DNA from: an uncultured Candidatus Saccharibacteria bacterium
GTDB taxonomy: Bacteria; Patescibacteriota; Minisyncoccia; UBA6257; GWB1-50-10
Direction: 5' to 3'
DNA: 64,000 nucleotides
Assembly: GCA_964466475.1 (NCBI GenBank)
Contig: CAYXNB010000001.1
Location: forward strand, 44,635-108,634
The notes below the pieces were generated by a model that was not told the DNA's origin, made no database searches, and was given only the letters and a program-made list of their open reading frames with translations. Shown piece after piece: positions 8,994 to 45,587 of the stretch (positions within the stretch are counted from its first letter, which is position 1; every line of letters begins with the position of its first letter). Both the position numbers and the translations under genes were made by a program.

Positions 8994-11007
8994 GTTTTTT
9001 CAGTTCGTGTATTTTAGCATCTATCATAAGCTGATACCACCAGCCCTGAAGCACATGAAACAAAAAACCCTCCTTTCCGTCAAGAATTCCCAGACGCACC
9101 ACATACCGATAGAAAAAATAGAGGCCGGGACGGATAAAGAGCGGCAGGTTTCCGTATATCCGCTCTTTTACCCACCTTCTTTTTTCTATGCGCTCCCCCC
9201 CGAGCCGCGCCTCCACCCGACCTGTTTTTTTCTCCCGCAACCGTTCGCGCGCCTCTCTTGACGAATATGAGTTATGCTTCGCGATCCAGGCCTCAAGGCC
9301 GTTTTTATTTTCATCCACAAAATCATGCTTCAGTCGTCCGGCCCGGCCACCCTGAAGCACCACGTGTTCATCCACCTCGCGCTCCTCGTACCAGGCCTTC
9401 CCCTTTCGAAACAGGCGGAGTATCCAGGTTGGATAGTACCCGCCGTGCCGGATCCAGCGGCCCAAAAAATATCCCCGCCGCTTCATGTAGTATCCCACGA
9501 TATCTTCCGGCGTTTTCGGGAGCGTTTCCCGTATCTCCCTCGCTATCTCGGGGGTCAGATATTCGTCCGCGTCAAGGCGCAATATCCAGTCGCCCCGCAT
9601 TTCTATATTTCCCAGCGCCCAGTTAAACTGGTCTGCCTGATTCTCAAACTCGTGTTCATAGAAGCGCACGCCGTACATTTTCGCGATTTCGCGAGTCGTG
9701 TCCGTGGAGAACGAGTCCACCACGATAATTTCGTCCGCGACGTCCTTTATGCTTTTCAGGCACGCCCCCAGGTTTTTTTCCTCGTTTTTCGTCAGAATGA
9801 CGGCGGTTACGGATACCTTCTTTTTTTCTTCCATACAATCTTGATAGAGCCGTATAAATTCTTCGGCGATTTTTTCTCCCGTAAATTTTTCCCTGACCAA
9901 CTCCCTTCCCCGAACTCCCATTTCCTCCGCCTCTTTTTTCAACGCTTCGCGAATCCCCCGCGCGAGCGCGTCTTCATTTTTTTCCACCACAATCCCCGCG
10001 TTCGCCTTTTTTACTTCGGGAGCGATGCCTACTCCGCTCGTAAGGACTACCGGAATTTTCAGATACATCGCCTCCACCGCGGACATTCCGAAACTTTCCA
10101 TGTATGAGGGCAGCACAAGCGTCTTCGCGGCACGAAGAAGGCCTATTTTATTCTTGCCCGTTACCAGGCCCGCGAATACCACGCTCCCTCCAAGTCCGTT
10201 CTCGGCAATCATTTTCCGAATTTCCGTTCCGTATCCGTCTTCGTCACTCCCCGCAAGGACCAGCACCACGTTTTTGTTTTCTTCCCGCACTTTTTTGAAT
10301 GCCGGAATGAGCGTGTCTATGCCTTTTATCCAGTTCAGCCGCCCCAGGAATAAAACAATGTCCTTTTCCCCCTTGCCGGCTATCCCCAAATTTTTCCGGA
10401 CGATCTCTTCCTCCTCCCCTTCTTCTTTCTCGATCTCTTCGTTTATGCCGTTCGGGATTACGCGCACCTGCCGCGGGTTCGGAAAGCCCTGCTCCTTGTA
10501 TTCCTCATATTCGCGCTCTATGGTTGTGTGCAGCGCCTCAGCGCGCGCAATATTTCTACCCTCCACAAGCGCGATGTAGAGATTTTTCAGAAGCGTCCTC
10601 CTCCCGCCCATGGCTTGCTTCATCAGGCTTCCGCGAGGCGATATGATATACGGAATTCCGTATTTTCTCGCATAGTATCCGGCGAGGGTCGAGGTTGCCC
10701 GAAAGACAGAGTCGGTGTGAATCACGTCAAACTGGCCCGCGGTTTCGCGGAGCTTTTGATGCATGGCGCGCGAATATTCCCATGCCCGAGGAAATGAGGT
10801 CGGGAAATACCACACACGCACCCCGTCCACAACCACCTCCTCGTTTTTCGGCACGTCCAGCGTGTTTTTCCCGTCCATGTCCGTGGTATAGACCGTTACG
10901 TCCACTCCTTTTTTTACCAGCCATTTGTTCAGGTTGTGCACCGAGGCAATGGGGCCCCCGTACCGGTGTGCGGGCACGTACACAGACGCGAGATGAAGTA
11001 TTTTCAT
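8950..11007 (-). CDS. Bifunctional glycosyltransferase: N-terminal GT4 domain fused to C-terminal GT2 domain
   Basis: N-terminus MKILHLASVYVPAHRYGGP plus the E-x7-E region (GT4); C-terminus VSVTAVILTKNEEKNL, VVDSFSTDTT, LDADEY (GT2 DxD); 685 aa. Confidence 0.75.
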   Translation of the reverse strand: MKILHLASVYVPAHRYGGPIASVHNLNKWLVKKGVDVTVYTTDMDGKNTLDVPKNEEVVVDGVRVWYFPTSFPRAWEYSRAMHQKLRETAGQFDVIHTDSVFRATSTLAGYYARKYGIPYIISPRGSLMKQAMGGRRTLLKNLYIALVEGRNIARAEALHTTIEREYEEYKEQGFPNPRQVRVIPNGINEEIEKEEGEEEEIVRKNLGIAGKGEKDIVLFLGRLNWIKGIDTLIPAFKKVREENKNVVLVLAGSDEDGYGTEIRKMIAENGLGGSVVFAGLVTGKNKIGLLRAAKTLVLPSYMESFGMSAVEAMYLKIPVVLTSGVGIAPEVKKANAGIVVEKNEDALARGIREALKKEAEEMGVRGRELVREKFTGEKIAEEFIRLYQDCMEEKKKVSVTAVILTKNEEKNLGACLKSIKDVADEIIVVDSFSTDTTREIAKMYGVRFYEHEFENQADQFNWALGNIEMRGDWILRLDADEYLTPEIAREIRETLPKTPEDIVGYYMKRRGYFLGRWIRHGGYYPTWILRLFRKGKAWYEEREVDEHVVLQGGRAGRLKHDFVDENKNGLEAWIAKHNSYSSREARERLREKKTGRVEARLGGERIEKRRWVKERIYGNLPLFIRPGLYFFYRYVVRLGILDGKEGFLFHVLQGWWYQLMIDAKIHELKKHERKGKNTSHSRRG

Positions 11008-12473
11008 GCTTTTTTGCGGATCATTCCCATAATTTCCCTAAATGCTTTTTCCCGCATTGTATATAACATACCCGCGTATACCGCCCCTGACAATACCACG
11101 TTCCCCAACACGTGCAGTCCGCTCATTTTTATAATCGCACTTCCCCCCGCCATGATCGCGGAGGCGGCGAGTATTTTTCCTAACTGCGGACGCACCCGCA
11201 CTCCTGAAATTTTTTCCGCAAAACCCCAGACAAGCGTCATGTAGAGAAAAGCCGTTGTCGTAGTCGCCACGGCGGCGCCGAGCGCTCCATAGGCCGGAAT
11301 GAGAAGCGCGTTTAGGGCCACATTGGTTCCTGACGCCACTATCGTCATCCAGATCGCGTTTGCCTGTTTATCGTACGCGAACAGAAGGTTGAAAAATATA
11401 GCGAATGGACTGCTTGCGATCGTCATTAAAAGCAGTATCCATAATACGCCCCCCGCTCCAATATATTCCCCACCGAATAAGAACCCCAAAAGATCGTTCC
11501 CCACCACAAATCCGCCCGCGATAAACGGAAGGGTTACGAGATACGTTGCCTGGAGCGCCCCGCGCGCGGTTTCCTCCATCCTTTTTACGTCCTTTTGATG
11601 CACGAATCTCGAGACCGCGGGAAAGATTGCGGTCGCGATGATTCCGGGCAGAATGCTTAGTATCCCCACAATCCTCTGGGATGCCGCGTATTTTCCTATT
11701 TCTTCCGCGGTTCTCCACCATCCGAGCATTACAATGTCCACGTTGAACAGAAATAGGCTCGCGAATCCGGAGATGGCAAGCGGCCAGGCGGATTTCAATA
11801 TCGGCAAAATCAGCGCCTTTTTTGCGTTTTTTATCAATCCCCTTAGGAACGGGCGCGCCATGCCCGCGGCAACGCATGCGCCGAGGATGGCTGCAAAGGC
11901 ATATCCCATGGCGAATGCCAGAGGCGTTTTTGAAATAAGGAGCGCGACTATGCCGCAAAGAGCGACCAGCGCATTTGACGCAACCGTAACCGCGGCCTCA
12001 AGCTCCATTTTTTCCTTGCCCCGAAAAAGCGCGATCAAAAAGTCCCGCATATCATCCGCCACCAAAATCAGCATGACAAGCGGCAGAATCGGCAGCGCTT
12101 CCTCCACGGAACTCAGGAACGGCGCGACTCCGACCATGAGCGCGGCCGTTACAAGAAGAAGCCCCACCTCAATCCAGAGCGCGGTTGCTATATAAAACGG
12201 CTCCTCCTCCGTTTTTTTCGCTATTTCGCGCGTAAGGATGGAGTCAACTCCTATATTTTTTATAAATATAAAAAAGCCCATGAGGCCCATGGCGTATGAG
12301 AAAACTCCATATCCTGAAGCGCCCAGAACCCGTGCCGCGTATATCACGACCAATCCCTTTAAAAGCCTGCTCCCCGCGCTTCCCGCAAAGAGCCACGCCG
12401 CGTTTTTTACTATTGTTTCCTTTGTGCCGGCCATACGCGAAACACTATGCATTTTTTCTCTCCTCCCGTCCAT
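11004..12473 (-). CDS. Wzx-like polysaccharide flippase (MOP/oligosaccharidyl-lipid flippase family)
   Basis: 489 aa, about 12-14 predicted TM helices, N-terminal IVKNAAWLFAGSAGSRLLKGLVVIYAARVLG typical of polysaccharide biosynthesis protein family. Confidence 0.65.
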   Translation of the reverse strand: MDGRREKMHSVSRMAGTKETIVKNAAWLFAGSAGSRLLKGLVVIYAARVLGASGYGVFSYAMGLMGFFIFIKNIGVDSILTREIAKKTEEEPFYIATALWIEVGLLLVTAALMVGVAPFLSSVEEALPILPLVMLILVADDMRDFLIALFRGKEKMELEAAVTVASNALVALCGIVALLISKTPLAFAMGYAFAAILGACVAAGMARPFLRGLIKNAKKALILPILKSAWPLAISGFASLFLFNVDIVMLGWWRTAEEIGKYAASQRIVGILSILPGIIATAIFPAVSRFVHQKDVKRMEETARGALQATYLVTLPFIAGGFVVGNDLLGFLFGGEYIGAGGVLWILLLMTIASSPFAIFFNLLFAYDKQANAIWMTIVASGTNVALNALLIPAYGALGAAVATTTTAFLYMTLVWGFAEKISGVRVRPQLGKILAASAIMAGGSAIIKMSGLHVLGNVVLSGAVYAGMLYTMREKAFREIMGMIRKKA

Positions 12474-13716
12474 ACGTTAGCGCCACATGAAGAACTCCTA
12501 AAATTACGAGCGATTTTATGAGTCCGGCGTAGACGGGCGAAACCCAGTCCTCCGTCCCCTTCACTACCTGGAACCAGACGACCGCGTATATCATGATGCC
12601 GGAAAGGGCTTTGCCGGACTGCTTTATCAAACATTCATATAAAAACCTCCAGACGGCTCCGAGGGCCATCATGCCCCAGATAACGCCCGCAAGTCCGAAG
12701 TTCATATACCAGTCGCCCATGTTCGTCGGTCCTATTGTCGAGGTTACGGTCGGATGAAGGATCCCCAGCCGATGACCCAGGCCGCTCCCCCCGCTTATTA
12801 CCGGCTTTGTTTTCCAAAGTATTCTCGGAGGACCCAAACTTATGAAAAATTTTTTCAGGGATTTTTCTTCGAGAAGCGGGTCTATGTTTTCCACGATTTT
12901 TGAAAACACCACAAACTGGTTCAGGCGACTTAATGAACTTTCCGCGGCAAATCGCGCGGCTCCGCCTATTGCTCCCGCCCCACCGGATGCCTCCCCAAGA
13001 TACGGGGCGAGTATCTCCGGACTTCTGCACGCGCTCCCCAGAGGGAGGGCCGTGAAAACAGCTACCGCGCATATTCCGACCAGTTTTTTCCAGCGTATCG
13101 CCCCCCCGTACCACAGGACCATACACCAAGCAATGACGGGTACGATAAACGAAGTTCTGTTGCAGGAAGGAATCGCGTAGATCATCTCGCCCGCAAACGT
13201 TCCCCACGCCGCGTACTTCCATATCCGCGATCCCGCGCCTCCCCGTGCCCGCGCGCGAAGATGCATTCCCCACGCGATTACGAGCGCGGCGTATCCAAAA
13301 ATTGAGAGCATCCCCATCGCGCTAAACCACGGGCTTTTTTCAAGCGGTGTCGGGATCACGTGAAACCGATAGGCGCCCCCCGCGATCTGGATAATCTTCC
13401 CGGCTGTCGCAAAAAACCACAGCACGAACCAAACTATACGCGCCCTTTCTTCCTTCCAATCTTTTCGCAGTCCGGCGCCTATCCTTTTTTCCGCTCCGTT
13501 CAATATTCGCATTCTGTATCCGATAAAAAAACTTGAGCATCCAAGGATCGCGTATATAAGCGCTATCGCGTTTATGTTTTTCGGAACCCCCACGCTTTCG
13601 CTAAACCAGTCCCCAACCCCCAGAATGGCGAGGAGCGGAGCCGAAAAAAATATGACCCCGTAATAGAGGGTTGCGGAAAATCCGAGAGAGAAAGGATCAA
13701 TGCCCTTCTTATCCAT
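12445..13716 (-). CDS. Polytopic membrane protein, candidate O-unit polymerase (Wzy-like)
   Basis: 423 aa, about 10+ hydrophobic segments with a large loop; sits between flippase and glycosyltransferases; no strong motif, assignment by context. Confidence 0.35.
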   Translation of the reverse strand: MDKKGIDPFSLGFSATLYYGVIFFSAPLLAILGVGDWFSESVGVPKNINAIALIYAILGCSSFFIGYRMRILNGAEKRIGAGLRKDWKEERARIVWFVLWFFATAGKIIQIAGGAYRFHVIPTPLEKSPWFSAMGMLSIFGYAALVIAWGMHLRARARGGAGSRIWKYAAWGTFAGEMIYAIPSCNRTSFIVPVIAWCMVLWYGGAIRWKKLVGICAVAVFTALPLGSACRSPEILAPYLGEASGGAGAIGGAARFAAESSLSRLNQFVVFSKIVENIDPLLEEKSLKKFFISLGPPRILWKTKPVISGGSGLGHRLGILHPTVTSTIGPTNMGDWYMNFGLAGVIWGMMALGAVWRFLYECLIKQSGKALSGIMIYAVVWFQVVKGTEDWVSPVYAGLIKSLVILGVLHVALTYGREERKNA

Positions 13717-15442
13717 GTTTTTGCTTTGTAAAATCCCTTCTCTGAATCTCTATATCGTCCACCCGTTCTTCCGTGGATTTTTCCGCAGTTATCATCACTC
13801 CATATCCCCATAAAAACGGAATCTTGAACCTGCAGATGCTGTTCAGGCGTCTCGCGCGGCGAAGCGCACGGTGCGCCCCGTACAACCATTCGTTCGTCTT
13901 TCGCAACGCCTGTTTTCCGTAGGCGGGGTAGAGGGCGAGAGCGAGGAGCGCCACCAGATGATTTGGTATCGCTACGATAATCCCGCGATAATCGGAGAAG
14001 AGGACGGAAAATCCGCTGTGCCGAAGAAGGATGTGAAGCGTTTTCGGAGAATAGACGTGGTAGTGATGATCCGGAAAATCCTGGTACAAGGGTACGCTTA
14101 AAAGCAGCTTCCCGTCCGGAGCAAGCGTCCTTCGTATTTCTTCAAGAGTTTTTTTATCTTCCCACACATGCTCCAACACCTCGGTCATCACCGCGTATTT
14201 GAAGTAATTATCGGGAAACGGAAGGGGCTCCGTAACGGACTGCCTGCGAAACCATTCCGGTTCCGCGATTCCGTTATCCACCACGTCCACCAGGTAAGTT
14301 TCTTCGCACTTTTTTTTGATGTCCGGATAGTCCCTGCCCTCATAGTCCCCTATGACGAGCACCGGTCCCCGGTCAATCGTATCCAGAATATACCTGTTTT
14401 GGGTGTATCCGCCCGGGAAGTCTGACATGGTTTTCTCCGGAAACGCCTTTCTAAAAAGTCGACGCGGAAATGTCCGCGCGCCCTTGTGGGCGCGATAGCC
14501 CAACCTCACCACCCGCCTCGGAAGAAGCAGAAACGGCAGGGCTATCCAGAATTCTAGGAAATTCCAATAAAGCCGAAATGCTTTGTTTATTTTCGGCGAC
14601 TTCGACGCGAACCCTGTTTCATGTCCCAGCGCCCGCTCCACCACAACCGCTTTCCACGCTTTTCGAAATTGCGCCCGCATTGCCCCACGCAACACTCGTT
14701 TTTTTAAAAATTTTTTAAACCGGAGTGCGACCTTAGAATAGTTTATCCCGTGCACCTCAAAGGAATCGTACCAGCGCGCTTCTCCGGACGGCTTTGGATT
14801 ACTCCACACGCACGGCTCCTGAAGAAAGCGTAATCTCCCCCCTCCTTTTGTTATCACGTGAAGCACGAGGTACAACCCTGATAGCGTTGTCCCTATGCAT
14901 TCTTCCGCGCCCCCCATCCCGCTTTCCGCCACCTCTTTTTTAATAATTGTCATCGAAGGGAACCCCAAAAGCCCTATATTGATCGCGACAATCTCGTTCG
15001 AATCCCGAAATACCCGGTCGCCACCCAAATCCAAAGCAACATCCCGTTTGTCATATACGCTTCTCGAATTTACCCAGACGAAAGACGTTTCCGGATCTTC
15101 CGTAACGCATCGGAGAACTCTTTTTACCGCGTCCGGCGCCATGACGTCGTCTCCGAACCACCAGACATATTTTCCCCCGGCTTCTTTTGTCAAAAATAAG
15201 AGCGCCATGTCGTATCCTCCTTGTTTCGCTTTCTCTCCCTTATAATACCGGAGCGTTCCCGGGAACCGCGAAATTTCTTTTTCCACTATTTGTTTTGTTT
15301 CATTGCCGGGGCTATCGTCGCGTATCACGATTTCAACCTCCGGCCTCATCTGCTTTCCCACGCATTCCAGGAATGCCCGTACCCGTTCCGGCTGATTTAT
15401 GGTCGGCAGGCAGATGCTTAAAATAATGGTTTTCTGACTCAT
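13709..15442 (-). CDS. GT2 glycosyltransferase fused to C-terminal class I SAM-dependent methyltransferase
   Basis: N-terminus IILSICLPTINQPERV, IRDDSPGNET, WWFGDDV (GT2; paralog of 21837..22862); C-terminus VLVIGDYEGRDYP and VMTEVLEHVWEDKKTLEEIRRTLAPDGKLLLSVPL (MTase motifs I and post-II); start at internal Met giving 4-nt ATGA overlap with upstream gene. Confidence 0.65.
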   Translation of the reverse strand: MSQKTIILSICLPTINQPERVRAFLECVGKQMRPEVEIVIRDDSPGNETKQIVEKEISRFPGTLRYYKGEKAKQGGYDMALLFLTKEAGGKYVWWFGDDVMAPDAVKRVLRCVTEDPETSFVWVNSRSVYDKRDVALDLGGDRVFRDSNEIVAINIGLLGFPSMTIIKKEVAESGMGGAEECIGTTLSGLYLVLHVITKGGGRLRFLQEPCVWSNPKPSGEARWYDSFEVHGINYSKVALRFKKFLKKRVLRGAMRAQFRKAWKAVVVERALGHETGFASKSPKINKAFRLYWNFLEFWIALPFLLLPRRVVRLGYRAHKGARTFPRRLFRKAFPEKTMSDFPGGYTQNRYILDTIDRGPVLVIGDYEGRDYPDIKKKCEETYLVDVVDNGIAEPEWFRRQSVTEPLPFPDNYFKYAVMTEVLEHVWEDKKTLEEIRRTLAPDGKLLLSVPLYQDFPDHHYHVYSPKTLHILLRHSGFSVLFSDYRGIIVAIPNHLVALLALALYPAYGKQALRKTNEWLYGAHRALRRARRLNSICRFKIPFLWGYGVMITAEKSTEERVDDIEIQRRDFTKQKHG

Positions 15443-16662
15443 GTTTTTTTTGCGAAGAATTTTTTTATTGTTTCCGCAATATACTCCACTTCCGCCTGCT
15501 TCAGGTACGGGTGGCATCCCACGTAAAACCCGCTCTCATTGATCCATGCTGCCACCGGATAGTCCTTTTCGATTTCTCCAAAATATTTTTTATATACCGG
15601 CTGATTTATGAGCGGCACCATCTCTCTGGTCTCTATTTTTCGTTCCTCTAGGAAATTCACCAGGTCGTGTTTCTTGCCGTTTCTCAGTACGATGGGATAC
15701 ATCATAAAATTATGATCCCTGTCCTTGGGCGCACGGGGAAGCTGAATTTCATTCTCAAGACAGGAGAGGCGTTCGGTATACACCTTTGCTATCTTCCTTC
15801 TTTTTCTGATGTTTTCCGCCCGTGTTTCGAACTGCGCCACTCCAATCGCCGCCTCAAGCTCCGTCGCCCGCATGCTGTGCCCGAACCGCACGAATGAAAA
15901 GCGCTTTTCCACGATAAGGGAAAGTTTCTTTTTGGACACATTGTCGTCCGCGTCTATATTAAGGTAGATTGAATCCCGCCCGTGGTTCATAAAACTTCTC
16001 ATGATAATTGCGAGTTCTGGATCGCTTGTAATCGCGAGTCCCCCGACTCCGGTTACCAGAAAATGCGCCACGTATGTTGAAAAACATCCCACATCTCCGA
16101 AAGACCCCACTTTCCTTCCCTTGTGCCTTGCAAACATGCATTCACAAGAATCCTCAAGCACCCGGAGGCCGCGCTTTTTCGCCACCGCCATCACGCCGTC
16201 CATGTCGCACGGGAGCCCGAACAGGTGCACGGGGAGTATCGCTTTTGTCCGCGGAGTTATTGCCGCCTCTATCTTCTCCGGATCTATGTTGTAAGTATCT
16301 CTTTCCACGTCCACAAACACCGGACGCATATTGTTGTATATGACAATATTGGAGGTAGCGATAAACGTTACCGCAGGCACGATCACTTCGTCTCCGTCCT
16401 TCCATTGGTACTTTTCTTTCATTGCCGCAAGCGCCATATGGAGCGCGCTTGTGCCGCTATTTGAAAATACGGCGAATTTCGCCCCATGCTCTTTCGCAAA
16501 TATATCCTCAAATTTTTTACTCCATGGTCCGTAAGAAAGACGCCCGCTTTTTATCACGTCTGCGAGATATTTTTTTTCCTTTGCACCGAATTTAAATCCG
16601 GCGGATCCAATGGGGTGCTTTGGTTTATATTCCATGTTTTTTTGATACAATCTCCGCTTCAT
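15439..16662 (-). CDS. PMP-dependent sugar 3-dehydratase of DegT/AHBA-synthase fold (E1/ColD-like; Schiff-base Lys replaced by His)
   Basis: DegT-family fold; active-site segment FSTYVAHFLVTGVGG aligns to FSFYANKIMTTGEGG of the bona fide aminotransferase at 23524..24627, with His at the Lys position as in ColD/E1 dehydratases; adjacent to gmd and fcl-like genes. Confidence 0.6.
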   Translation of the reverse strand: MKRRLYQKNMEYKPKHPIGSAGFKFGAKEKKYLADVIKSGRLSYGPWSKKFEDIFAKEHGAKFAVFSNSGTSALHMALAAMKEKYQWKDGDEVIVPAVTFIATSNIVIYNNMRPVFVDVERDTYNIDPEKIEAAITPRTKAILPVHLFGLPCDMDGVMAVAKKRGLRVLEDSCECMFARHKGRKVGSFGDVGCFSTYVAHFLVTGVGGLAITSDPELAIIMRSFMNHGRDSIYLNIDADDNVSKKKLSLIVEKRFSFVRFGHSMRATELEAAIGVAQFETRAENIRKRRKIAKVYTERLSCLENEIQLPRAPKDRDHNFMMYPIVLRNGKKHDLVNFLEERKIETREMVPLINQPVYKKYFGEIEKDYPVAAWINESGFYVGCHPYLKQAEVEYIAETIKKFFAKKT

Positions 16663-17578
16663 ACCATTCTATTGTTTTTCGGAGACCCTCTTCAAATCCT
16701 GTCCGCGCCCGAAAGCCGAATTCCCGTTCCGCCTTTGCTACATCCAGCATTCTTTTTGGCTGACCATCCGGCCTTGTCGGATTCCACCGTATTTTTCCCC
16801 GGAAGTTCATGTGTGCTGCTATGTTTTCCGCAAGATCTTTTATGGAGATTTCCATGCCGGACCCAAGGTTTACGGGATCGGGTTTTTCATACTTTTCCGT
16901 CGCGAGAACTATTCCTTCCGCCGCGTCTTCAACATACAAAAATTCACGCGTCGCCGTGCCGCTCCCCCACACCTCCACCTCCGCCTTTCCAGCTTCTCTT
17001 GCTTCGCGGATTTTGCGAATAAGCGCGGGAATCACGTGCGAGGAATCGAGGTCGAAATTGTCTCCGGGTCCATAGAGGTTGATCATAAGAAGATGGATAC
17101 CTGAAAACCCGTACTCCGCGTAATACGACCGCGTTTGTTCAAGCATCATTTTTTTCGCGATACCGTAAGGCGCATTTAATTCCTCCGGATATCCGTCCCA
17201 TAGAGATCCTTCGCGAAACGGAGTCGGACAATATTTCGGATAGGAGCAGACCGTCCCTATGCCCACGAATTTTTTTATTCCCGCCCTGTAGGATGCCTCC
17301 ACCATATTCAGCGCCATTGCCGCATTATCATAAAAAAGCACTGCCGGATGCTCTTTGTTGAAGCCTATGCCCCCGACCACTCCCGCGAGATGGATGACAA
17401 CATCCGCCCCGCCAACCGCGCGATCACAGGACTCTCTTTGTCGCAGATCGAATCCGGGGCGCCGGGGAACTCGAATATTTTCTTCTGCAACCCCCCGTTC
17501 GACGAGTTTTTTTCGCACATACGCGCCCAGAAATCCGGCTCCTCCTGTTACCACCACTTTTTTATCGTGCAGTATCAT
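16625..17578 (-). CDS. fcl: GDP-L-fucose synthase family epimerase/reductase (Fcl/ColC-like)
   Basis: VVVTGGAGFLGAY Rossmann, catalytic Y-x3-K (PYGIAKK), 317 aa; immediately downstream of gmd with ATGA overlap. Confidence 0.7.
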   Translation of the reverse strand: MILHDKKVVVTGGAGFLGAYVRKKLVERGVAEENIRVPRRPGFDLRQRESCDRAVGGADVVIHLAGVVGGIGFNKEHPAVLFYDNAAMALNMVEASYRAGIKKFVGIGTVCSYPKYCPTPFREGSLWDGYPEELNAPYGIAKKMMLEQTRSYYAEYGFSGIHLLMINLYGPGDNFDLDSSHVIPALIRKIREAREAGKAEVEVWGSGTATREFLYVEDAAEGIVLATEKYEKPDPVNLGSGMEISIKDLAENIAAHMNFRGKIRWNPTRPDGQPKRMLDVAKAEREFGFRARTGFEEGLRKTIEWYEAEIVSKKHGI

Positions 17579-18552
17579 CGTGTTTTCTCCTCTCTTACCC
17601 GCCGCACGTCCTCTTCGACCATCATGCGGACAAGATCTTCAAAGGAAGTTTTGGGCTTCCAGCGGAGATGCTTTTTCGCTTTTTCGATATCTGCAACGAG
17701 GTTCTCCGGCTCGTTTCTCCGCTTTTCTGTCATATTTTCCGAAACATACTTTTTCCAATCAAGCCCGAGCATTCCGAATGCCCGTTCCGTGAATTCTTTT
17801 ACCGTGTGAGTCCTGCCGGTCCCTATAACATAATCGTCCGGTTCTTTTTCCTGGAGCATAAGCCACATGGCCTCCACATAGTCGCCCGCGAATCCCCAGT
17901 CGCGCCTGGCGTTTAGATTACCCAGATTCAGCCCGCATTCCTTGCCGTACCTGATCCCTGCCGCGGCATGCGTAATTTTCCTTGTTACGTACATTTCATT
18001 CCTTCTCGGCGATTCGTGGTTAAACAAAATTCCGGTGCAAGCAAAAACTCCGTATGCTTCCCGATATATTCTTGTGAGCTGCAGCGACGCGGCTTTTGCG
18101 ACTCCGTAGACCGAAATCGGGGCATAGGGCGTTTTTTCGTTCTGAGGGAAAATTTTTGTCTTGCCGAATATCTCGCTTGATCCCGCTCCGAAAAATCTGC
18201 ACCCGCTTCCCTTTCGCTTCAGGGCGGCGAGGAATATCTGGGTTGCCATTGCGTTTATGGCGATTGTTTCCGTTTCTTCCTCCGGGCGCTGGGACTGCTT
18301 TTGGCCGGCCAGATGATAAATTTCATCCGGACGCACGGCGACCAGATTCTTCACGAAGTTTTCATCCCCCACGGATCCGCGACGCATCTTCACGCGACCC
18401 TCAAGGTGGCGTATCCTCCAAAATTCCGGACTTTTCCAAGAAATTTTTTGGCGCGTCACTCCTACTATGTCATATCCCTTTTTCAAAAGAAACTCTGCCA
18501 GATATGATCCGTCCTGTCCGGTCATTCCTGTTATTACCGCCTTTTTCTTCAT
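17575..18552 (-). CDS. gmd: GDP-mannose 4,6-dehydratase (copy 1)
   Basis: [55 protein letters not shown] hallmark Gmd motifs; start set at internal MKKKAVITG giving ATGA overlap with upstream gene. Confidence 0.85.
   Translation of the reverse strand: MKKKAVITGMTGQDGSYLAEFLLKKGYDIVGVTRQKISWKSPEFWRIRHLEGRVKMRRGSVGDENFVKNLVAVRPDEIYHLAGQKQSQRPEEETETIAINAMATQIFLAALKRKGSGCRFFGAGSSEIFGKTKIFPQNEKTPYAPISVYGVAKAASLQLTRIYREAYGVFACTGILFNHESPRRNEMYVTRKITHAAAGIRYGKECGLNLGNLNARRDWGFAGDYVEAMWLMLQEKEPDDYVIGTGRTHTVKEFTERAFGMLGLDWKKYVSENMTEKRRNEPENLVADIEKAKKHLRWKPKTSFEDLVRMMVEEDVRRVREEKTR
17831..17916. repeat. 86-bp tract 100% identical to 19782..19867 (gene-conversion tract between gmd paralogs)
   Basis: taatcgtccggttctttttcctggagcataagccacatggcctccacatagtcgcccgcgaatccccagtcgcgcctggcgtttag present in both gmd copies while flanking coding sequence is diverged. 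Confidence 0.8.
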
Positions 18553-19466
18553 GTGTTTTTTTCCCACCACCGGCACTCCGGAGCCCACTCCTTCATGCGG
18601 TTGTAGGTCAGACGAAGTCCTTCCTCTAAGGTGTGTCGCGGCTCCCAGCCGGTCAATTTTTTTACCAACGAAATGTCACATCGAAAATTCATCGGGCCGG
18701 ATACCTGCTTCCGAAGATCGCGTATTTTTTTTCCGGAAATTTCTCCCAATATATCCGCTATGCGCTTTACGCTGACCGATGTGCCAGTGCCCAGATTCAC
18801 AATTCCGGTGTATTCCGTATCCGTCAATTTTACGATTGCCTCCGCCGCATCGTCCAGATACAAAAAGTCCCGCACCGGATCCCCGTTCCAAATAGTCACC
18901 TCTTCCGGCCCTAGTATATTTTGCACTAAGGTCGGCACAAGGTCAGGACGTACAAGTTTTGTCGGTCCGTAAATGTTTGAGAATCGGATGACGATGGAGG
19001 GGACTCTGTCCTTATAAAAACACACAACCTCTTCCGACAGGTGCTTGCTAAATATATATTCGTTTACATATGGATTCGTCTCCTGACTTTCATCCACTGG
19101 CAATTTCATTTTCCTTTCATCATAGAGCAGTATGGTTGTGAAGCAGACAAATTTTTTTATGTTCCTTTTTTGAAAATAAAAGAGCGCCTTTTTTATAGGC
19201 AGAACGTTTTTTTCAATGCCGATAATCGGATCTCTGTTTATGACGTGGTGATCGGAACTTCCGATAAGAAATATCACCTTTTCTACCTCCACGCTGTCTA
19301 GCGCGCGGAGATCGTCCATGCTCTCCAGATGGATGTGCTCGTTTTTTACATAGTCCGGCGGCTTTGTTCTGCCCACCGATATAATATCGGGGTATTTTTC
19401 CAATATAATCGGCCCCAAAAATCCACTCCCTCCGAACAACAATGTTTTTCCCCCGTATTTTTTCAT
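18549..19466 (-). CDS. NAD-dependent epimerase/dehydratase (extended SDR), candidate GDP-4-keto-6-deoxymannose reductase (Rmd-like)
   Basis: LLFGGSGFLG Rossmann, Y-x3-K (YIFSK), 305 aa; sandwiched between two gmd genes. Confidence 0.55.
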   Translation of the reverse strand: MKKYGGKTLLFGGSGFLGPIILEKYPDIISVGRTKPPDYVKNEHIHLESMDDLRALDSVEVEKVIFLIGSSDHHVINRDPIIGIEKNVLPIKKALFYFQKRNIKKFVCFTTILLYDERKMKLPVDESQETNPYVNEYIFSKHLSEEVVCFYKDRVPSIVIRFSNIYGPTKLVRPDLVPTLVQNILGPEEVTIWNGDPVRDFLYLDDAAEAIVKLTDTEYTGIVNLGTGTSVSVKRIADILGEISGKKIRDLRKQVSGPMNFRCDISLVKKLTGWEPRHTLEEGLRLTYNRMKEWAPECRWWEKNT

Positions 19467-19470
19467 GTGG

Positions 19471-20505
19471 TTATAGCGTAATTCCGCTCTTTTTCAGGTC
19501 GTGCTCAAGCATCATTTTTACGAGTTCGCGGAAGGTCGTTTTCGGCTTCCACCCAAGATTCTCCCGCGCCTTTTTCGCGTCTCCCTGGAGCGCGTCTACC
19601 TCGGCCGGACGAAAGTACCGAGGGTCGATTTTGACGATAATCTTTCCGGTCCTTCTGTCCTTGCCAACCTCTTCCGTTCCCCGTCCTTCCCAGATTATTT
19701 CAAATCCCGCGAGACGGCAGGCCTCTTCCGCAAATTCCCGAACCGAGTGCGTTTCTCCGGTCGCGATGACGTAATCGTCCGGTTCTTTTTCCTGGAGCAT
19801 AAGCCACATGGCCTCCACATAGTCGCCCGCGAATCCCCAGTCGCGCCTGGCGTTTAGGTTTCCCAGATAGATGGCGTCCAGCTCGCCCTTTAATATTTTT
19901 GCCAGCGAAAGCGTGATTTTTCTCGTTACGAAATTCTCCCCCCTTCGCGGAGATTCGTGATTGAAAAGAATCCCATTGCACGCGAACAGCCCGTAACTTT
20001 CCCGATAATTCCTTGTGGCCCAGTATGCGTACACCTTTGAGACGCCATAGGGGCTGCGCGGATGAAAGGGAGTTTCTTCATTTTGAGGCGGGGGCGATGC
20101 GCCGAACATTTCGGAACTCGAGGCCTGATAGAATTTCGCCTTCGGATGATCGTGCCGCACCGCCTCCAGGATTCTCGTGGTCGCGAGCGCGGTCGCATTT
20201 CCGGTAAATTCCGGAACCTCAAAACTGACTCCCACGTGGCTTTGGGCCGCGAGGTGGTAGATCTCGTCCGGCCCCAGAGACTGAATGATACGATGCAAAG
20301 AGCTTGAATCGGTCAGGTCCCCATAGTGGAGTTCGATTCTATTCTCCCTATCATGTATGTCGGGGAAGAGGTGCTGAATCCGTTCGCGATTAAACGTGCT
20401 TACCCTCCGCACGATGCCGTGGACCTCGTACCCCTTTTCCAAGAGGAGTTCGGCAAGATACGATCCGTCTTGTCCGGTAATTCCGGTTATGAGCGCTTTT
20501 TTCAT
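19471..20505 (-). CDS. gmd: GDP-mannose 4,6-dehydratase (copy 2)
   Basis: [64 protein letters not shown]; 344 aa full-length Gmd. Confidence 0.88.
19782..19867. repeat. Partner of the 86-bp identical tract at 17831..17916
   Basis: See 17831..17916. Confidence 0.8.
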
Positions 20506-20522: not shown

Positions 20523-21800
20523 TTATTTTTCTATGACTTGAAACTCCGGCATGGGCACGATGAATTTACCTCCTCTGCCCAAAAATTCGCTCTCGCGCTC
20601 CCGAAATTCTTTCAAAAAATGCCAGGGCAGTATAAAAAAATAGTCCGGCATCGCCCTTCGCGCCTCTTCTTCGGAAATAATGGGTATCCAGGTTCCCACG
20701 GTCATTTTACCCCACTTCATGGGGTTGCGCTCCACCGCGCTTTTCACGCACGCGTTGTCCAGGCCGTAATACTGCAGAAGCGTGTTTCCCTTGGTCGAGG
20801 CGCCGTAGGCATATATCGTCTTTCCGCTTTCCGCCTCTTTTCGTATGAACGCGGATGTTGCTTCTTTTAGTTCGTCCACCCGCTCCGCAAATTCCCGGTA
20901 AATCGTTTTTTCGTCAAGACCGAGGTCTTTTTCCTTTTTTCGCATGGAGAGGACTCTGTCTTCCGCTCCCTCGCGCCTTCGGATCGACTTTCCTTCTCCC
21001 CGGACACGAATATACACCCGGAAGCTCCCTCCGTTTATATCGTTCGTTTCCACGTCAAACACCTCAAGACCGTGCCTTTCCAAAAGCCGCTCCAGGGACC
21101 TTAACGAATAATACTCCAGGTGTTCGTGGCAGATATTCCCCACTTCGTTCGTTTCCAACATGAGCGGCAAATAACTCATCTGGATAATAAACACTCCTTC
21201 AGGGTCCAGGCATTCCCGCGCTCCGCTTACAAAGGCGTTCGGATCATCCAGATCGTAAAACATAGCGATCGCGGTTATGATTTTCGCTTTTTTGTCGCCG
21301 AATTCCTTTTTCCACGCCGCAGCGGAAAAAAAATCGTTTATGATCCTGTCCGTTCCTTTTTCGTAATGCTTTTCCAGGTTTTTCGCAGGTTCGAATCCGG
21401 TTTTTACGATCCCTCCCCCCGCGTATCCCCGAAGGAGGGTTCCGTCATTTACCCCTATGTCCATCACAATATCCCCCGGTTTCAACGGGGCCATTTCTTC
21501 GGCGCGCCTTGCGATGCCGTGAAGTTCGTTCGTCATGGTTCTGTTCGTTCCGGAAAGATACCAGTACGTCCTGTAGAGCGCTTCGTTCGAGACCGTGTGC
21601 TTTAACTGAAGCAGTCCGCAACCGCCTCTTTTCTCTTCACACAGCACGAGCTCCAGAGGAGCCCGCACCCCCTCGTTTTTTTCCTCCTCCGACAAAAAAT
21701 CCGAAACATACAGATCTCCGAGAGAAAGGACGGGCAGGAGATCCGCGTTTCCGCACACCCTGCATTCCCGTATTTCCCGATATGGAGGGTTTTTGCTCAT
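20523..21800 (-). CDS. SAM-dependent sugar C-methyltransferase family protein (TylCIII/NovU-like; N-terminal Zn-ribbon + MTase + C-methyltransferase C-domain)
   Basis: N-terminal CRVCGNADL...C Zn-binding (Methyltransf_13-like), central [16 protein letters not shown] motif, 425 aa length typical of NDP-hexose 3-C-methyltransferases. Confidence 0.6.
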
Positions 21801-21836: not shown

Positions 21837-22862
21837 CTATCTTTTTCTTTTCTTTAATCCTTTCCATTTCCGCTCCTCAAAAAATATTTTGTACATCCGG
21901 TAGAGCAGAATGATAACCGGGCGCGGAAGCAAAAAAAGAGGCAGAGCGACCCAGCATTCGGGGTAACTCCAGTAGAGGCGGAGCATTGTAAGTCGCTTCC
22001 CTTTCGGGGTGTCCCATCCTCCGGCCCATCCGACCACCATTCCCCGCCATACCTGGCCAAAATTTTTGGCAAGCATGGTACGAACTGCGCGCCTGGAAAA
22101 GTTCTTTTCAAACGATTTTATCACGTCGTGGAAAACAACTCCGAACACGCGGAATCCGTTATTTTCTATCTTCCCCCCCTTCGTGGTCTCGGCGACTATT
22201 TCTTCTCTCGGGGTCGGATGGCATATCACGTACGGCCCTTTCAGAAAATAATTCTTTCCCCCGCTTACGATCGCGGTCAAAACCGGCATAAGCGAGGCGA
22301 ATCCGAATCCGATTGAAACTTTTCTTCCTTTTTCCACGCCGGGCAGCGCCGCTTCCCGTTTCGCACAAAAAGTGGAGAGGAGGCCCAGATTCGCCCCCAA
22401 AAGTTCCAAAACTTCGTTGTGATCTCGAAAAAAGCCCTCTTCCCTGTCCGGGATTGCGATAAGCCCGGAGTCCGCAATCATAAAATTCGCCCAAATGAAT
22501 GAGATTTCCGGGTGTGCGCGGATGATACGGAGTACGTGGGCTATCGCGCCCTCCTTCATCTCGTCGTCGTCGCTAAACCACCAGATATATCGTCCGGAGG
22601 CGTTTTCTATCAAGAAAAGATTCGCGGCGTCAAGGCCTATTTTTTCTCCATGTACATACCGGTACCTAATCCCGCTCCCCTCGAGGAGACTTCGGGTTAT
22701 TTTTTCCGTCTCGTCGTCCGGGCTGTCGTCACGGATTACTACCTCCACCTCGTCTGTTATCTGCGGAATAATGTTTTTCAGGCACTTCTCAAAATCCTTC
22801 GGACGATTGTAGGTTGGGATGCAGACGCTCAGGATCGGTTCGTTTTTCATGTTTTTCATCAT
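21837..22862 (-). CDS. GT2 glycosyltransferase
   Basis: ILSVCIPTYNRPKDFEKCL, VVIRDDSPDDET, WWFSDDDE; paralogous to N-domain of 13709..15442. Confidence 0.7.
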   Translation of the reverse strand: MMKNMKNEPILSVCIPTYNRPKDFEKCLKNIIPQITDEVEVVIRDDSPDDETEKITRSLLEGSGIRYRYVHGEKIGLDAANLFLIENASGRYIWWFSDDDEMKEGAIAHVLRIIRAHPEISFIWANFMIADSGLIAIPDREEGFFRDHNEVLELLGANLGLLSTFCAKREAALPGVEKGRKVSIGFGFASLMPVLTAIVSGGKNYFLKGPYVICHPTPREEIVAETTKGGKIENNGFRVFGVVFHDVIKSFEKNFSRRAVRTMLAKNFGQVWRGMVVGWAGGWDTPKGKRLTMLRLYWSYPECWVALPLFLLPRPVIILLYRMYKIFFEERKWKGLKKRKR

Positions 22863-22901
22863 ACCTTGTCCTACCCTCTTTTTTCAATTACGCTTTTATA
22901 T

Positions 22902-23498
22902 ATGAAGCGCGTATATATTGCCTCATCCATGCCCATCGGGGAACGATGCCTCGGATTCGCGCGGGAACATCTGCCTGAGGGGACCCTTCTTGCCGACGAC
23001 ATGAATTCATGCGAAGTGTTTATCTCCGTATTCTATAACCAACTTATTACAAAAGAATTTATCAATTCTCGGGAGCAATGCTTAAACTTCCACGCTGGCA
23101 TTCTCCCCCAATATCGCGGTTCCGGCACCATCAACTGGGCCATTATAAACGGAGAAAAAGAAACCGGAGTAACACTCCATGAAATTGACGAAAAAATCGA
23201 CCACGGGGATGTGATTGAGGTTCGCTCCTTCCCGCTTGGGGATATGGACACGTGTGAGAGTGTGTTTAAAAAAACAGAAAAACTGGTGTTTCAAATGTTC
23301 TGTGATTGGTTTCAAAAACTCGCCCTTGGAAAATATACTGCTATCCCCCAGGACCATTCAAAAGCGCGCCTGTATTCCCGCGCGGATCTCCAAAAAGCGA
23401 AGGATCTGACCCCATATGTCCGCGCCTACCATCTGCCGGGCAAGGAGGCGGCCTATTATTACAACAGAAAGGGAGAAAAGGTCTATCTTGAATGGTAA
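22902..23498 (+). CDS. Sugar N-formyltransferase (formyl_trans_N family)
   Basis: Catalytic N-x-H...D signature NFHAGILPQYRGSGTINWAIINGEKETGVTLHEIDEKIDHGDVI; track ORF 22512..23498 trimmed to internal ATG because upstream part is antisense to the GT2 gene. Confidence 0.7.
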   Translation: MKRVYIASSMPIGERCLGFAREHLPEGTLLADDMNSCEVFISVFYNQLITKEFINSREQCLNFHAGILPQYRGSGTINWAIINGEKETGVTLHEIDEKIDHGDVIEVRSFPLGDMDTCESVFKKTEKLVFQMFCDWFQKLALGKYTAIPQDHSKARLYSRADLQKAKDLTPYVRAYHLPGKEAAYYYNRKGEKVYLEW

Positions 23499-23523
23499 TG
23501 GGTTATTCTGTATCATTCCATCC

Positions 23524-32601: not shown

Positions 32602-32661
32602 TTTTTCATACTATGCTTTTGCATCCATACTCACAAGATGTTTCTCTCTCATTCCGTGAAA

Positions 32662-43191: not shown

Positions 43192-43223
43192 AGCGCCATC
43201 ATATCACAGGTTGCTACGACCTG

Positions 43224-45479: not shown

Positions 45480-45520
45480 ATGCCCTATTCTGCCAGGTTT
45501 TTTGTTTATCCTCAAGAAAT

Positions 45521-45548
45521 CCAAAAACCGCCCGAAGGCGGTTTTTGG
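45521..45548. terminator. Bidirectional rho-independent terminator hairpin (CCAAAAACCGCC-CGAA-GGCGGTTTTTGG)
   Basis: Perfect 12-bp stem with A/T-run flanks immediately downstream of the surface-protein gene stop (45588). Confidence 0.6.
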
Positions 45549-45587
45549 TTACGTTCGAGAACGCTTGTCGTTCTACGCCACCATTCC

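Follow-up and report, generated by a model that had tools for sequence, protein, structure and literature searches.

Organization of the locus

The window (the whole 64,000-nucleotide stretch of DNA analyzed here) carries on its minus strand a deoxysugar module whose five open reading frames, proposed in an earlier note, were confirmed at the same coordinates (15439-20505). The module contains a canonical GDP-mannose 4,6-dehydratase (Gmd; 19471-20505), a 305-aa extended SDR (18549-19466), a divergent short-form GMD paralog (17575-18588), a GDP-fucose-synthase-family (Fcl-like) epimerase/reductase that overlaps both of its neighbors (16625-17578), and a putative ColD-like PMP-dependent NDP-4-keto-6-deoxyhexose 3-dehydratase of the DegT fold (15439-16662). 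Neighboring module genes overlap by 4 to 11 nt, which suggests co-translation. The maximal reading frame of the DegT-fold gene encodes 407 aa, but the A-rich AAAAAAACATG context and the lengths of homologs favor a start at 16635 and a product of 398 aa. The same kind of evidence, again including an A-rich AAAAAAACATG context, places the likely start of the GMD paralog at 18552 (325 aa).

The module reaches past these limits to a C-methyltransferase gene (20523-21800, minus strand) and flanking glycosyltransferases. The co-directional block begins with a family-2 glycosyltransferase (21837-22862, minus strand; Pfam Glycos_transf_2), which has orthologs in loci L002 and L004 (416 to 433 bits). 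Directly downstream of the dehydratase gene lies a fusion of a GT2 domain and a methyltransferase (13709-15517, minus strand; Pfam Glycos_transf_2 and Methyltransf_11/23), the likely start of which, at 15442, gives a 4-nt overlap with the dehydratase gene. A GT2 gene also follows the ColD-like gene in L002, L004, L010, L063, and L076, and the fusion is a candidate transferase for the deoxysugar. The surrounding glycan locus of about 40 kb encodes a flippase, a polymerase-like protein, and many glycosyltransferases; no GDP-mannose pyrophosphorylase was recognized within the window.

A DegT-fold protein with histidine at the Schiff-base position

The product of 15439-16662 matches Pfam DegT_DnrJ_EryC1 with 338 bits and aligns over its full length with Escherichia coli ColD at 30% identity (E 2e-53), while its top NCBIfam model, RfbH/E1, reaches 257 bits, short of the cut-off of 423. 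Its active-site motif, FSTYVAHFLVTGVGG (residues 194-208; 16039-16083), has His200 (codon 16063-16065) in place of the Schiff-base lysine. The earlier note had deduced this replacement by hand from a comparison with a paralog about 7 kb away, a Lys-type, perosamine-synthase-like DegT aminotransferase on the plus strand (23416-24627; motif FSFYANKIMTTGEGG, Lys224 at 24085-24087). That hand alignment was right: in HMMER and MAFFT alignments, the residue opposite His200 is Lys186 in Caulobacter GDP-perosamine synthase, His188 in E. coli ColD, and His220 in Yersinia E1, which the H220K mutant (3bb8) changes to Lys. The histidine is kept in all 120 of the best database relatives (59 to 79% identity) and in 80/80 genome loci, and such invariance argues that it is no chance substitution. 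Across the roughly 200 ColD-like family members, lysine at the Schiff-base position is absent; K82 is the sole invariant lysine of the family, so that no other lysine near the active site is invariant, and the EDSCE motif retains the PLP/PMP-site aspartate.

A second feature of the dehydratases is an insertion of 22 to 23 residues that is common to the ColD-like family, ColD, and E1 but missing in all aminotransferases aligned. In the window protein it follows NHGRD (RDSIYLNIDADDNVSKKKLSLIVEKRF; 15898-15978) and contains no cysteines, whereas the cysteine cluster of E1 sits within it. The family as a whole has none there in 74 of 80 loci and one in the other 6. The four-cysteine Fe-S motif of E1 was not found in the window protein, and no E3-like reductase gene lies nearby in the window. 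Presence of the Fe-S cysteine motif is what separates E1 and SpnQ from ColD (PMC8987622); because these cysteines are missing, the window protein appears to be of the ColD type and not of the E1 type. Together, the histidine and the insertion bear out the earlier proposal of a PMP-dependent 3-dehydratase, an assignment that we regard as very probable from the sequence. A ColD-type enzyme would depend on PMP, probably recycle it with glutamate, and need no reductase.

Its grouping with dehydratases rather than transaminases was recovered in a neighbor-joining tree built after the diagnostic columns had been removed, in which the His-type enzymes form one clade (bootstrap 81% and 97%) and the window protein lies with ColD and E1, apart from the aminotransferases; the tree is small and rough, and E1 is represented in it by its C-terminal half. 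The two halves of the protein have different closest relatives, the N-terminal domain being nearest to GDP-perosamine synthase and the C-terminal half to E1 (87 bits versus 49 for ColD). The ColD-like proteins form their own clade, present in 282 species of Patescibacteria, Omnitrophota, Elusimicrobiota, Planctomycetota, and archaea, with Limnoglobus roseus PX52 as one cultured carrier, and no characterized enzyme within it was found in the sources searched. The key enzyme of the module is a member of a large uncharacterized family whose proteins are named aminotransferases in databases. It is not a ColD ortholog, given its 30% identity, since the characterized GDP-sugar 3-dehydratases share 62 to 67% identity among themselves (PMC10440746).

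ColD resembles the window protein in its fold, its histidine for the Schiff-base lysine, its lack of Fe-S cysteines, the additional loop that follows its HG(R/W) motif, and the linkage of its gene to gmd and a GDP-fucose-synthase-family epimerase/reductase. They differ in the residue preceding the histidine (Ser in ColD, Ala in the window protein and E1) and in clade and host range, the clade of the window protein occurring in CPR, Elusimicrobiota, Planctomycetota, and archaea. With E1 (RfbH/DdhC), the CDP-6-deoxy-L-threo-D-glycero-4-hexulose 3-dehydrase known from Yersinia and Salmonella, the window protein has the insertion and the Ala-His dyad in common. E1, however, carries [2Fe-2S] cysteines in that insertion and requires the E3 reductase; the window protein has no cysteine there, and no E3-like gene is close by. 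E1 also acts on a CDP-sugar, whereas the window gene is accompanied by GDP-mannose genes. Overall, the family profile scores highest against GDP-perosamine synthase (Per/RfbE; Caulobacter 3dr4/3bn1), with 253 bits compared with 243 for E1 and 208 for ColD, and the substrate of Per, GDP-4-keto-6-deoxymannose, is the one proposed for the window protein. Per differs in having Asn-Lys at the site of the Ala-His dyad, lacks the 22-residue insertion, and transaminates rather than deoxygenates. A GDP-linked substrate is likely for the window enzyme, with less confidence than its dehydratase identity. Some family members at about 57 to 62% identity have CDP-glucose genes as neighbors (L060 and L014-type loci), and in L007 the neighbor is an RmlD-like reductase, so nucleotide specificity may vary in the family.

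Partner enzymes and their recurrence

The canonical Gmd exceeds the TIGR01472 cut-off of 415 (552 bits) and carries the AQSHVGVSF and ASSSEMFG motifs. The second gmd of the earlier note is a true GMD-family protein, scoring 240 to 296 bits against true GMDs and 91 bits against RMD and retaining GSSE...YGVAK...NHESPRR, but it is oddly diverged: it falls under the same cut-off (312 bits), has GQKQSQRPE where AQSHVxVSF is expected, and finds its best database match at just 55% identity, and the proteins that the closest relatives encode at its position no longer have the catalytic glutamate. The 305-aa SDR (Pfam Epimerase, 73 bits) had been called Rmd-like, a description that did not hold. Its top PDB match is the UDP-glucose 4-epimerase of Thermotoga maritima (78 bits), and no RMD is among its PDB matches at E <= 1e-5. 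The family of this SDR has 969 members at E <= 1e-20, the named matches being CPR (Patescibacteria, Parcubacteria, and Microgenomates), and in every context examined it was paired with another SDR. We infer a 4-ketoreductase or an epimerase.

The Fcl-like protein falls below the NCBIfam GDPFucSynFcl cut-off of 500 (257 bits), and its top PDB matches are GDP-L-fucose synthases (GFS; 203 bits). Thr109, Cys111, Tyr138, Lys142, and His181 align with the catalytic residues of GFS, so that the Ser/Thr-Tyr-Lys triad and the Cys/His epimerization pair are retained. A ColC-like role, as proposed earlier, agrees with this catalytic set, but its identity to ColC (30%) does not exceed that to E. coli Fcl (34%), and the protein could instead simply make GDP-fucose.

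At least ten other genomes (L014, L015, L017, L035, L040, L045, L047, L070, L082, and L086) contain a contiguous trio in which the ColD-like gene sits directly between a canonical Gmd and an Fcl-like epimerase/reductase, and this recurrence supports a route from GDP-mannose to a 3,6-dideoxyhexose. Of 72 species loci, 34 have an Fcl-like gene and 24 a Gmd no more than 10 kb from the ColD-like gene, and 16 have both.

Proposed route and alternative products

We propose that the module removes two hydroxyls from GDP-mannose to give a rare, colitose-like 3,6-dideoxy sugar for a cell-surface glycan, with a probability of roughly two in three. The canonical Gmd would convert GDP-mannose to GDP-4-keto-6-deoxy-D-mannose. 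The dehydratase would then form a PMP-sugar Schiff base, from which His200 would take the C4' proton and the 3-hydroxyl would depart; hydrolysis would yield GDP-4-keto-3,6-dideoxy-D-mannose and ammonia, and PLP with glutamate would give PMP again, with no part for an Fe-S cluster or an E3-like reductase. The Fcl-like enzyme would epimerize C5 and reduce C4 to a colitose-type GDP-3,6-dideoxy-L-hexose, which the downstream GT2 fusion and the roughly 40-kb glycan locus would incorporate. GDP specificity, recycling by glutamate, the stereochemistry of the product, and the choice of finishing reductase are what we infer here; candidates for the end product are colitose itself, a branched variant, and one of the D series. 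Plain L-colitose is a tentative assignment. The GDP-colitose route of the earlier note gains from the recurring trio, but three tailoring enzymes of the operon (the C-methyltransferase, the 305-aa SDR, and the GMD paralog) are superfluous to it. The chemistry of such a module is already known; the ColD-like clade is separate and uncharacterized.

The C-methyltransferase, which the earlier note overlooked, belongs to the TylC3/MtmC/TcaB9 family of NDP-4-keto-sugar enzymes (Pfam Methyltransf_13, Methyltransf_23, and Methyltransf_14), with PDB matches to the D-mycarose 3-C-methyltransferase MtmC (219 bits) and TcaB9 (134 bits), and it could change the sugar product of the module. With the dehydratase acting as described, it might methylate GDP-4-keto-6-deoxymannose before 3-deoxygenation or the 4-keto-3,6-dideoxy product afterwards, and an extra SDR or the GMD paralog would serve as 4-ketoreductase, giving a branched 3-C-methyl (or 5-C-methyl) 3,6-dideoxyhexose. 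We consider this rather unlikely, although the methyltransferase gene shares the co-directional block with Gmd, lying 17 nt upstream of it, is conserved together with the module in its nearest relatives (L002/3, L004/9, and L010), and recurs at a distance of 1 to 3 kb from the ColD-like gene in lineages that are unrelated (L007/8, L063, and L076). The order in the Elusimicrobia locus L076 (ColD-like gene, GT2, C-methyltransferase, and a GMD paralog without the catalytic glutamate) mirrors that of the window's lineage, and all solved relatives of the methyltransferase methylate C3 beside the 4-keto group. However, just 5/72 species loci have it near the ColD-like gene, and we know of no natural 3-C-methyl-3,6-dideoxyhexose. 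In L002 it adjoins a Lys-type aminotransferase and not the dehydratase, and thus may belong to an amino-sugar branch. A set of Gmd, a TylCIII-like C-3 methyltransferase (CBU_0691), and an Fcl-like protein (CBU_0688) has been proposed for virenose in Coxiella burnetii, in a pathway that is an in silico model only (PMC3539893). The window polysaccharide locus has the same gene combination but adds a ColD-like gene, whereas the virenose pathway has no 3-dehydratase; a GDP-dependent member of the methyltransferase family with biochemical proof was not found in the literature consulted (PMC3539893).

It is less probable still that the Fcl-like protein acts with Gmd as a GDP-L-fucose synthase of the ordinary kind, and that either the 305-aa SDR or the paralog of GMD reduces the dehydratase product without epimerization to a D-series GDP-3,6-dideoxyhexose, so that the locus makes fucose as well as this D-sugar. 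The slightly greater identity to Fcl than to ColC fits this arrangement, as do an archaeal locus (L038) in which the ColD-like gene is accompanied by Gmd and a 305-aa SDR ortholog (406 bits) but by no Fcl-like gene, and L092, where two SDRs, the 305-aa SDR among them, come after the ColD-like gene. Against it, the Fcl-like and ColD-like genes overlap and always occur together in the window's lineage, and they are paired also in the ten simple trios, with no other reductase between them, while L091, L093, and L094 carry the 305-aa SDR without any ColD-like gene.

An aminotransferase, or an E1-like enzyme for a CDP- or dTDP-sugar, is highly improbable for the DegT-fold protein. In favor of such a reading, relatives carry the annotation perosamine synthetase or dTDP-4-amino-4,6-dideoxygalactose transaminase, GDP-perosamine synthase is the closest match of the N-terminal domain, and the neighbor of some relatives is a glucose-1-phosphate cytidylyltransferase scoring above its NCBIfam cut-off. 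The family-wide loss of the Schiff-base lysine, the two GMD-family genes in an operon with no CDP-glucose or dTDP-glucose genes, and the lack of both Fe-S motif and E3-like reductase all speak against it, and all characterized His-variants of the fold are 3-dehydratases, wild-type ColD and E1 having no transaminase activity (PMC8987622).

The Lys-type paralog at 23416-24627, whose top PDB match is GDP-perosamine synthase (305 bits, E 9e-90), and a divergently transcribed sugar N-formyltransferase-like protein (22899-23498, plus strand; Pfam Formyl_trans_N), with PDB matches of 55 to 66 bits to sugar N-formyltransferases including the GDP-perosamine formyltransferase WbkC, form a further branch.

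Histidine and insertion of the DegT-fold protein

The DegT-fold protein encoded at 15439-16662 on the minus strand (Pfam PF01041, 338 bits; aspartate-aminotransferase-type fold) contains the motif FSTYVAHFLVTGVGG at residues 194-208, with the codon for His200 at nt 16063-16065. In HMMER comparisons with solved structures and in a MAFFT alignment, His200 falls on Lys186 of the Caulobacter GDP-perosamine synthase (Per), on His220 of the Yersinia CDP-sugar 3-dehydrase E1, and on His188 of the E. coli colitose enzyme ColD, where BLASTP against ColD gave the same register. Position 220 of E1 is the residue that is lysine in the H220K mutant entry 3bb8. The ColD, ColC, and Fcl sequences used here were taken by coordinates from the E. 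coli O55:H7 CB9615 record; a nucleotide search of E. coli genomes, with gmd from the window as query, covered only ~23-38% of that query at 65-74% identity. The Schiff-base lysine of the (S/N)K motif is absent, and Ala199-His200 stands where sugar aminotransferases have Asn-Lys. In ColD, the double replacement S187N/H188K confers transaminase activity. The pattern FSTY[IVMT]AH is present in 120/120 of the best database relatives (59-79% identity) and in all 80 of the recovered genome loci, while the sole invariant lysine in the family alignment, K82, is far from this motif. A perosamine-synthase-like aminotransferase from the same window (23416-24627, plus strand) has Lys224 within FSFYANKIMTTGEGG, and among solved structures it scores highest, 305 bits, to GDP-perosamine synthase. 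The earlier note had read a histidine in place of the Schiff-base lysine and had proposed alignment with ColD and E1 as the check; both alignments bear it out. The observation is correct and, with the histidine invariant across relatives, non-random.

The lysine-to-histidine swap is the chief distinction of the 3-dehydratases E1, ColD, and SpnQ from aminotransferases; E1 and SpnQ have a four-cysteine [2Fe-2S] motif but ColD does not, and in the ColD reaction an enamine intermediate is hydrolyzed and PMP is regenerated with glutamate (PMC8987622). The window protein differs from Per not only in having Ala-His for Asn-Lys but also in a 22-23-residue insertion after the NHGRD motif, which in the MAFFT alignment is common to the ColD-like family, ColD, and E1 and is absent from Per, the lysine-type paralog, and six other Lys-type DegT proteins. 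Although the window protein shares the Ala-His and insertion region with E1, the cysteines that E1 holds in its insertion (rdCyCapgCdntCkk) have no counterpart in RDSIYLNIDADDNVSKKK, the insertion of the window protein, which contains 0 Cys. Across the 80 genome loci the insertion has no cysteine in 74 and a single one in 6. The four-cysteine motif was not found in the ColD-like protein, nor did the scanned ORFs, those of the operon and others in the window, include a gene for an E3-type (ferredoxin-reductase-type) partner.

Similarity over the whole sequence does not by itself settle the class: against the family profile, Per reaches 253 bits, E1 243, and ColD 208, and the fold comparison is flat. 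An AF2 model of the ColD-like protein (pLDDT 83) gave query-normalized Foldseek TM-scores of 0.78-0.82 to ColD, E1, and Per, and of 0.75-0.82 to every DegT-fold enzyme in the PDB, dehydratase or aminotransferase alike, so the fold is uninformative for class. A small neighbor-joining tree, a simple method with limited sampling, was built after removal of the catalytic column and the insertion. The ColD-like family forms its own clade with 99% support, sister to ColD/E1. The His-type clade had 81% bootstrap support when the C-terminal half was used and E1 included, and 97% when full-length sequences with ColD were used. A placement among transaminases, which the earlier note had held would count against its reading, was not recovered in this tree, where the His-type proteins group together.

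The best explanation of these sequence features is that the protein is a PMP-dependent, Fe-S-independent 3-dehydratase of the ColD type. Like ColD, it has the His-for-Lys replacement and the insertion and lacks the cysteine motif, but it is only 30% identical to E. coli ColD and belongs to a separate sister clade, and for these reasons we term it ColD-like and not ColD. Members of the characterized ColD clade are 62-67% identical to each other (PMC10440746). As judged by sequence, the ColD-like proteins are a large, unnamed sister clade outside that group.

Operon and predicted GDP-sugar route

The region from ~5.9 to 45.5 kb reads as a glycan-assembly island throughout in the ORF scan, and the ColD-like gene lies within a co-directional minus-strand block of that island. 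In the direction of transcription the block begins with a GT2 glycosyltransferase (21837-22862), a sugar C-methyltransferase (20523-21800), Gmd (19471-20505), a 305-aa SDR (18549-19466), a GMD-like protein encoded by a second gmd (17575-18588), and an Fcl-like protein (16625-17578). These are followed by the ColD-like gene (15439-16662), a GT2 plus methyltransferase fusion (13709-15517), a polymerase-like membrane protein (12445-13716), a flippase (11004-12473), and, beyond the flippase, additional glycosyltransferases. Intergenic gaps are 4-36 nt, and elsewhere the genes overlap. The starts that best fit homolog lengths are internal ATGs at 16635 (DegT-fold protein), 18552 (second gmd), and 15442 (GT2 fusion); the mechanically listed maximal ORFs at these three places are probably too long by 9-25 codons. 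All three starts follow the A-rich context AAAAAAACATG and share AAAAAAAC(A)CATG, an A-rich run and not a purine-rich Shine-Dalgarno-like sequence, and all three give overlaps of 4-11 nt with the preceding gene. This shared context and these overlaps suggest a single transcript with translational coupling.

Gmd at 19471-20505 scores 552 bits against a cut-off of 415 for the NCBIfam equivalog TIGR01472 and carries the ASSSEMFG and YGVSK motifs, [ST]SE...Yx3K being the GMD signature (PMC8987622). ORFs of 80 retained loci were searched with the window proteins, and the 72 loci with usable flanks were counted for linkage. Within 10 kb of the ColD-like gene, an Fcl-like gene was found in 34/72, Gmd in 24/72, and both in 16/72, and every Gmd adjoining a ColD-like gene has canonical AQSHVxVSF and ASSSE(M/L) motifs. 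In ten loci from other genomes (L014, L015, L017, L035, L040, L045, L047, L070, L082, and L086), Gmd, ColD-like, and Fcl-like genes form a contiguous trio on their own. The collinear gmd, Fcl/ColC-like, and DegT module of the earlier note holds here as one operon and recurs elsewhere, and the Gmd score together with the trio linkage supports GDP-4-keto-6-deoxymannose as the predicted substrate in the window.

The Fcl-like protein has GDP-L-fucose synthases (GFS) as its top solved relatives (203 bits). It is an extended SDR that keeps both the Ser/Thr-Tyr-Lys triad and the Cys/His epimerization pair, T109, Y138, K142, C111, and H181 aligning with S107, Y136, K140, C109, and H179 of GFS. The ColC-type reductase of the earlier note agrees with these residues at the level of the GFS/ColC family; identity is 30% to ColC and 34% to Fcl, with 257 bits against a cut-off of 500 for NCBIfam GDPFucSynFcl, so the sequence is silent on a ColC versus an Fcl role. 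Enzymes of this family epimerize C5 and reduce C4, and ColC does so on a 3-deoxy substrate to give GDP-L-colitose. By analogy, the Fcl-like enzyme acting on a 3-deoxy substrate would epimerize C5 and reduce C4 to yield GDP-L-colitose. That the ColD-type dehydratase feeds a GDP-3,6-dideoxyhexose pathway is the best explanation of the module, with colitose as the simplest product; a branched or D-series product is also conceivable given the additional tailoring genes.

The second gmd product is below the TIGR01472 cut-off (312 bits versus 415), its nearest database relatives are just 55% identical, and although it keeps the GSSE...YGVAK signature, the AQS(H/F/Y)V motif of its relatives is replaced. 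Its identification as an RMD was rejected, as it scores 240-296 bits to GMDs and 91 bits to RMD. By these scores it is a true, if unusual, GMD-family protein, so that the second gmd of the earlier note is upheld at the level of family but falls short of the NCBIfam cut-off and of the intact AQSHV motif. The window paralog retains the catalytic Glu, unlike its positional counterparts in L002/3, L004/9, L010, and L076 (other genomes with a ColD-like gene), where Asn, Arg, Lys, or His replaces it. These counterparts (L002:7325-8326, L004:7231-8184, L010:3110-4096, and L076:13430-14365) keep NHESPRR and Yx3K. Without the Glu they would be reductase- or epimerase-type enzymes and not dehydratases, which suggests repeated conversion of GMD into a non-dehydrating, possibly reductase-like, enzyme. 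The two window paralogs are 48% identical overall at the protein level but share a 148-nt stretch at 86% identity (17780-17927 and 19721-19868; 33 aa identical). Gene conversion was dropped as the cause, because almost the same motif is found in Arabidopsis GMD; constraint by purifying selection on a universally conserved motif explains the identity better.

The 305-aa SDR, which the earlier note had called Rmd-like, does not bear out that name, RMD (2pk3) being absent from its 48 PDB matches (E <= 1e-5), of which the highest-scoring is a UDP-glucose 4-epimerase at 78 bits. Its family includes 969 proteins at E <= 1e-20, with named matches from Patescibacteria, Parcubacteria, and Microgenomates. 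It is paired with another extended SDR in every context examined, but a ColD-like gene was adjacent in only 1/4 contexts looked up independently from its homologs. The idea that it always travels with the ColD-like gene was rejected on this count, which gives no firm functional coupling between the two.

Distribution, annotation, and possible tailoring partners of the ColD-like clade

With one genome scanned per species, ColD-like relatives turned up in 282 genomes, and there are many more in metagenomes. Among the carriers are uncultivated lineages such as Patescibacteria, Omnitrophota, many Elusimicrobiota, and DPANN archaea, together with other archaeal MAGs, Nitrospirales, Acidobacteriota, Zixibacteria, and Gemmataceae, the last with at least one cultured planctomycete, Limnoglobus roseus PX52 (NZ_CP042425.1, ~2.61 Mb). 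In a literature search for colitose in CPR, Elusimicrobia, or Omnitrophica, none of the papers listed contained the word colitose. The 3,6-dideoxyhexoses are rare, strongly antigenic sugars, known chiefly from enterobacterial, Vibrio, and Campylobacter surface polysaccharides. Public annotations name the ColD-like relatives aminotransferases or perosamine synthetases, which may be explained by the lack of any NCBIfam model over its cut-off for the window protein. Even E. coli ColD itself (L090:8701-9867, O55:H7 CB9615), which is biochemically and structurally characterized, has the RefSeq name "DegT/DnrJ/EryC1/StrS family aminotransferase," and ColC is named "GDP-L-fucose synthase family protein." Under such names dideoxy-sugar capacity is systematically missed. 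The window locus indicates a separate, uncharacterized, and widespread clade of ColD-type dehydratases. Characterization of one member would correct the annotations, would open a way into the surface glycans of ultra-small bacteria, and could reveal new tailoring such as C-methylation. For a specialist, the chemistry itself would hold no surprise.

Nucleotide specificity may not be uniform across the clade, as a few relatives (~57-62% identity) adjoin either a glucose-1-phosphate cytidylyltransferase that is over its cut-off (in L060, and in L014-type loci, where it lies downstream of the trio) or, in L007, an RmlD-like reductase. In a Micrarchaeota MAG (L060:8170-11164) and in L014:5279-11309, and similarly in L015, L017, and L040, the cytidylyltransferase (over the NCBIfam cut-off) occurs with 4,6-dehydratase-like SDRs, a hint that some clade members may catalyze the E1 reaction on CDP-sugars with neither an Fe-S cluster nor E3.

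The product of 20523-21800 matches PF08421 (Zn-binding N-domain), PF13489 (SAM domain), and PF08484 (C-domain), all over cut-offs, and is closest to MtmC (full-length alignment, 219 bits) and then TcaB9; these matches identify it as a three-domain NDP-sugar C-methyltransferase of the TylC3/MtmC/TcaB9 family, which the earlier note had left out. The loci closest to the window module (L002/3, L004/9, and L010) keep the gene, and it is again found close to ColD-like genes in L007/8, L063, and L076. Its position varies, however: in L002 its neighbor is the Lys-type aminotransferase, and just 5/72 species loci have it near the ColD-like gene. It may mark a distinct 3-C-methyl branch of the virenose type (compare PMC3539893), or it may act in the amino-sugar branch or transfer a methyl group to the dideoxy intermediate. 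A more far-reaching proposal, which we think improbable, is that the clade is a third, unrecognized, Fe-S-free 3-dehydratase lineage that in the window lineage, and independently in some Elusimicrobiota, is combined with a GDP-sugar C-methyltransferase and a GMD-derived reductase, the product being a branched 3-C-methyl-3,6-dideoxyhexose made from GDP-mannose on the surface of candidate-phyla-radiation bacteria; to our knowledge, no such sugar is known so far.

Possible amino-sugar branch and other features of the window

A sugar N-formyltransferase-like gene and the perosamine-synthase-like aminotransferase gene are transcribed divergently from the minus-strand block and suggest a branch of N-formyl-perosamine type fed by the same 4-keto intermediate. 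Only ~36 bp (22863-22898) separate the GT2 start at 22862 (minus strand) from the likely formyltransferase start at 22899 (plus strand), so both divergent promoters must lie within coding sequence unless transcription starts further away.

A minus-strand block at 31786-38306 encodes two MobA-like nucleotidyltransferases, an FkbM methyltransferase, a class II aldolase, a 706-aa protein with a PRK/uridine-kinase domain, and a HAD phosphatase, and looks like a distinct activation pathway for a phosphorylated sugar or alditol. At 41857-49082 (minus strand), two tandem Wzy_C/O-antigen-ligase-like membrane proteins (444 and 766 aa) precede a 1164-aa protein that carries a peptidoglycan-binding domain at its N terminus; these proteins may form glycan acceptor or attachment machinery. 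Finally, a group I intron (Rfam RF00028, 84 bits, full-length model) at 59186-59437 interrupts a tRNA gene at 59140-59470 on the minus strand. ARAGORN did not call the interrupted tRNA at this place. The intron flanks read as tRNA halves, GCCGCGGTAGCTCAGTGG... and ...GGGGGTTCAATTCCCTCCCGCGGCA, and when joined in silico they were called as tRNA-Pro(UGG) for most trial junctions.
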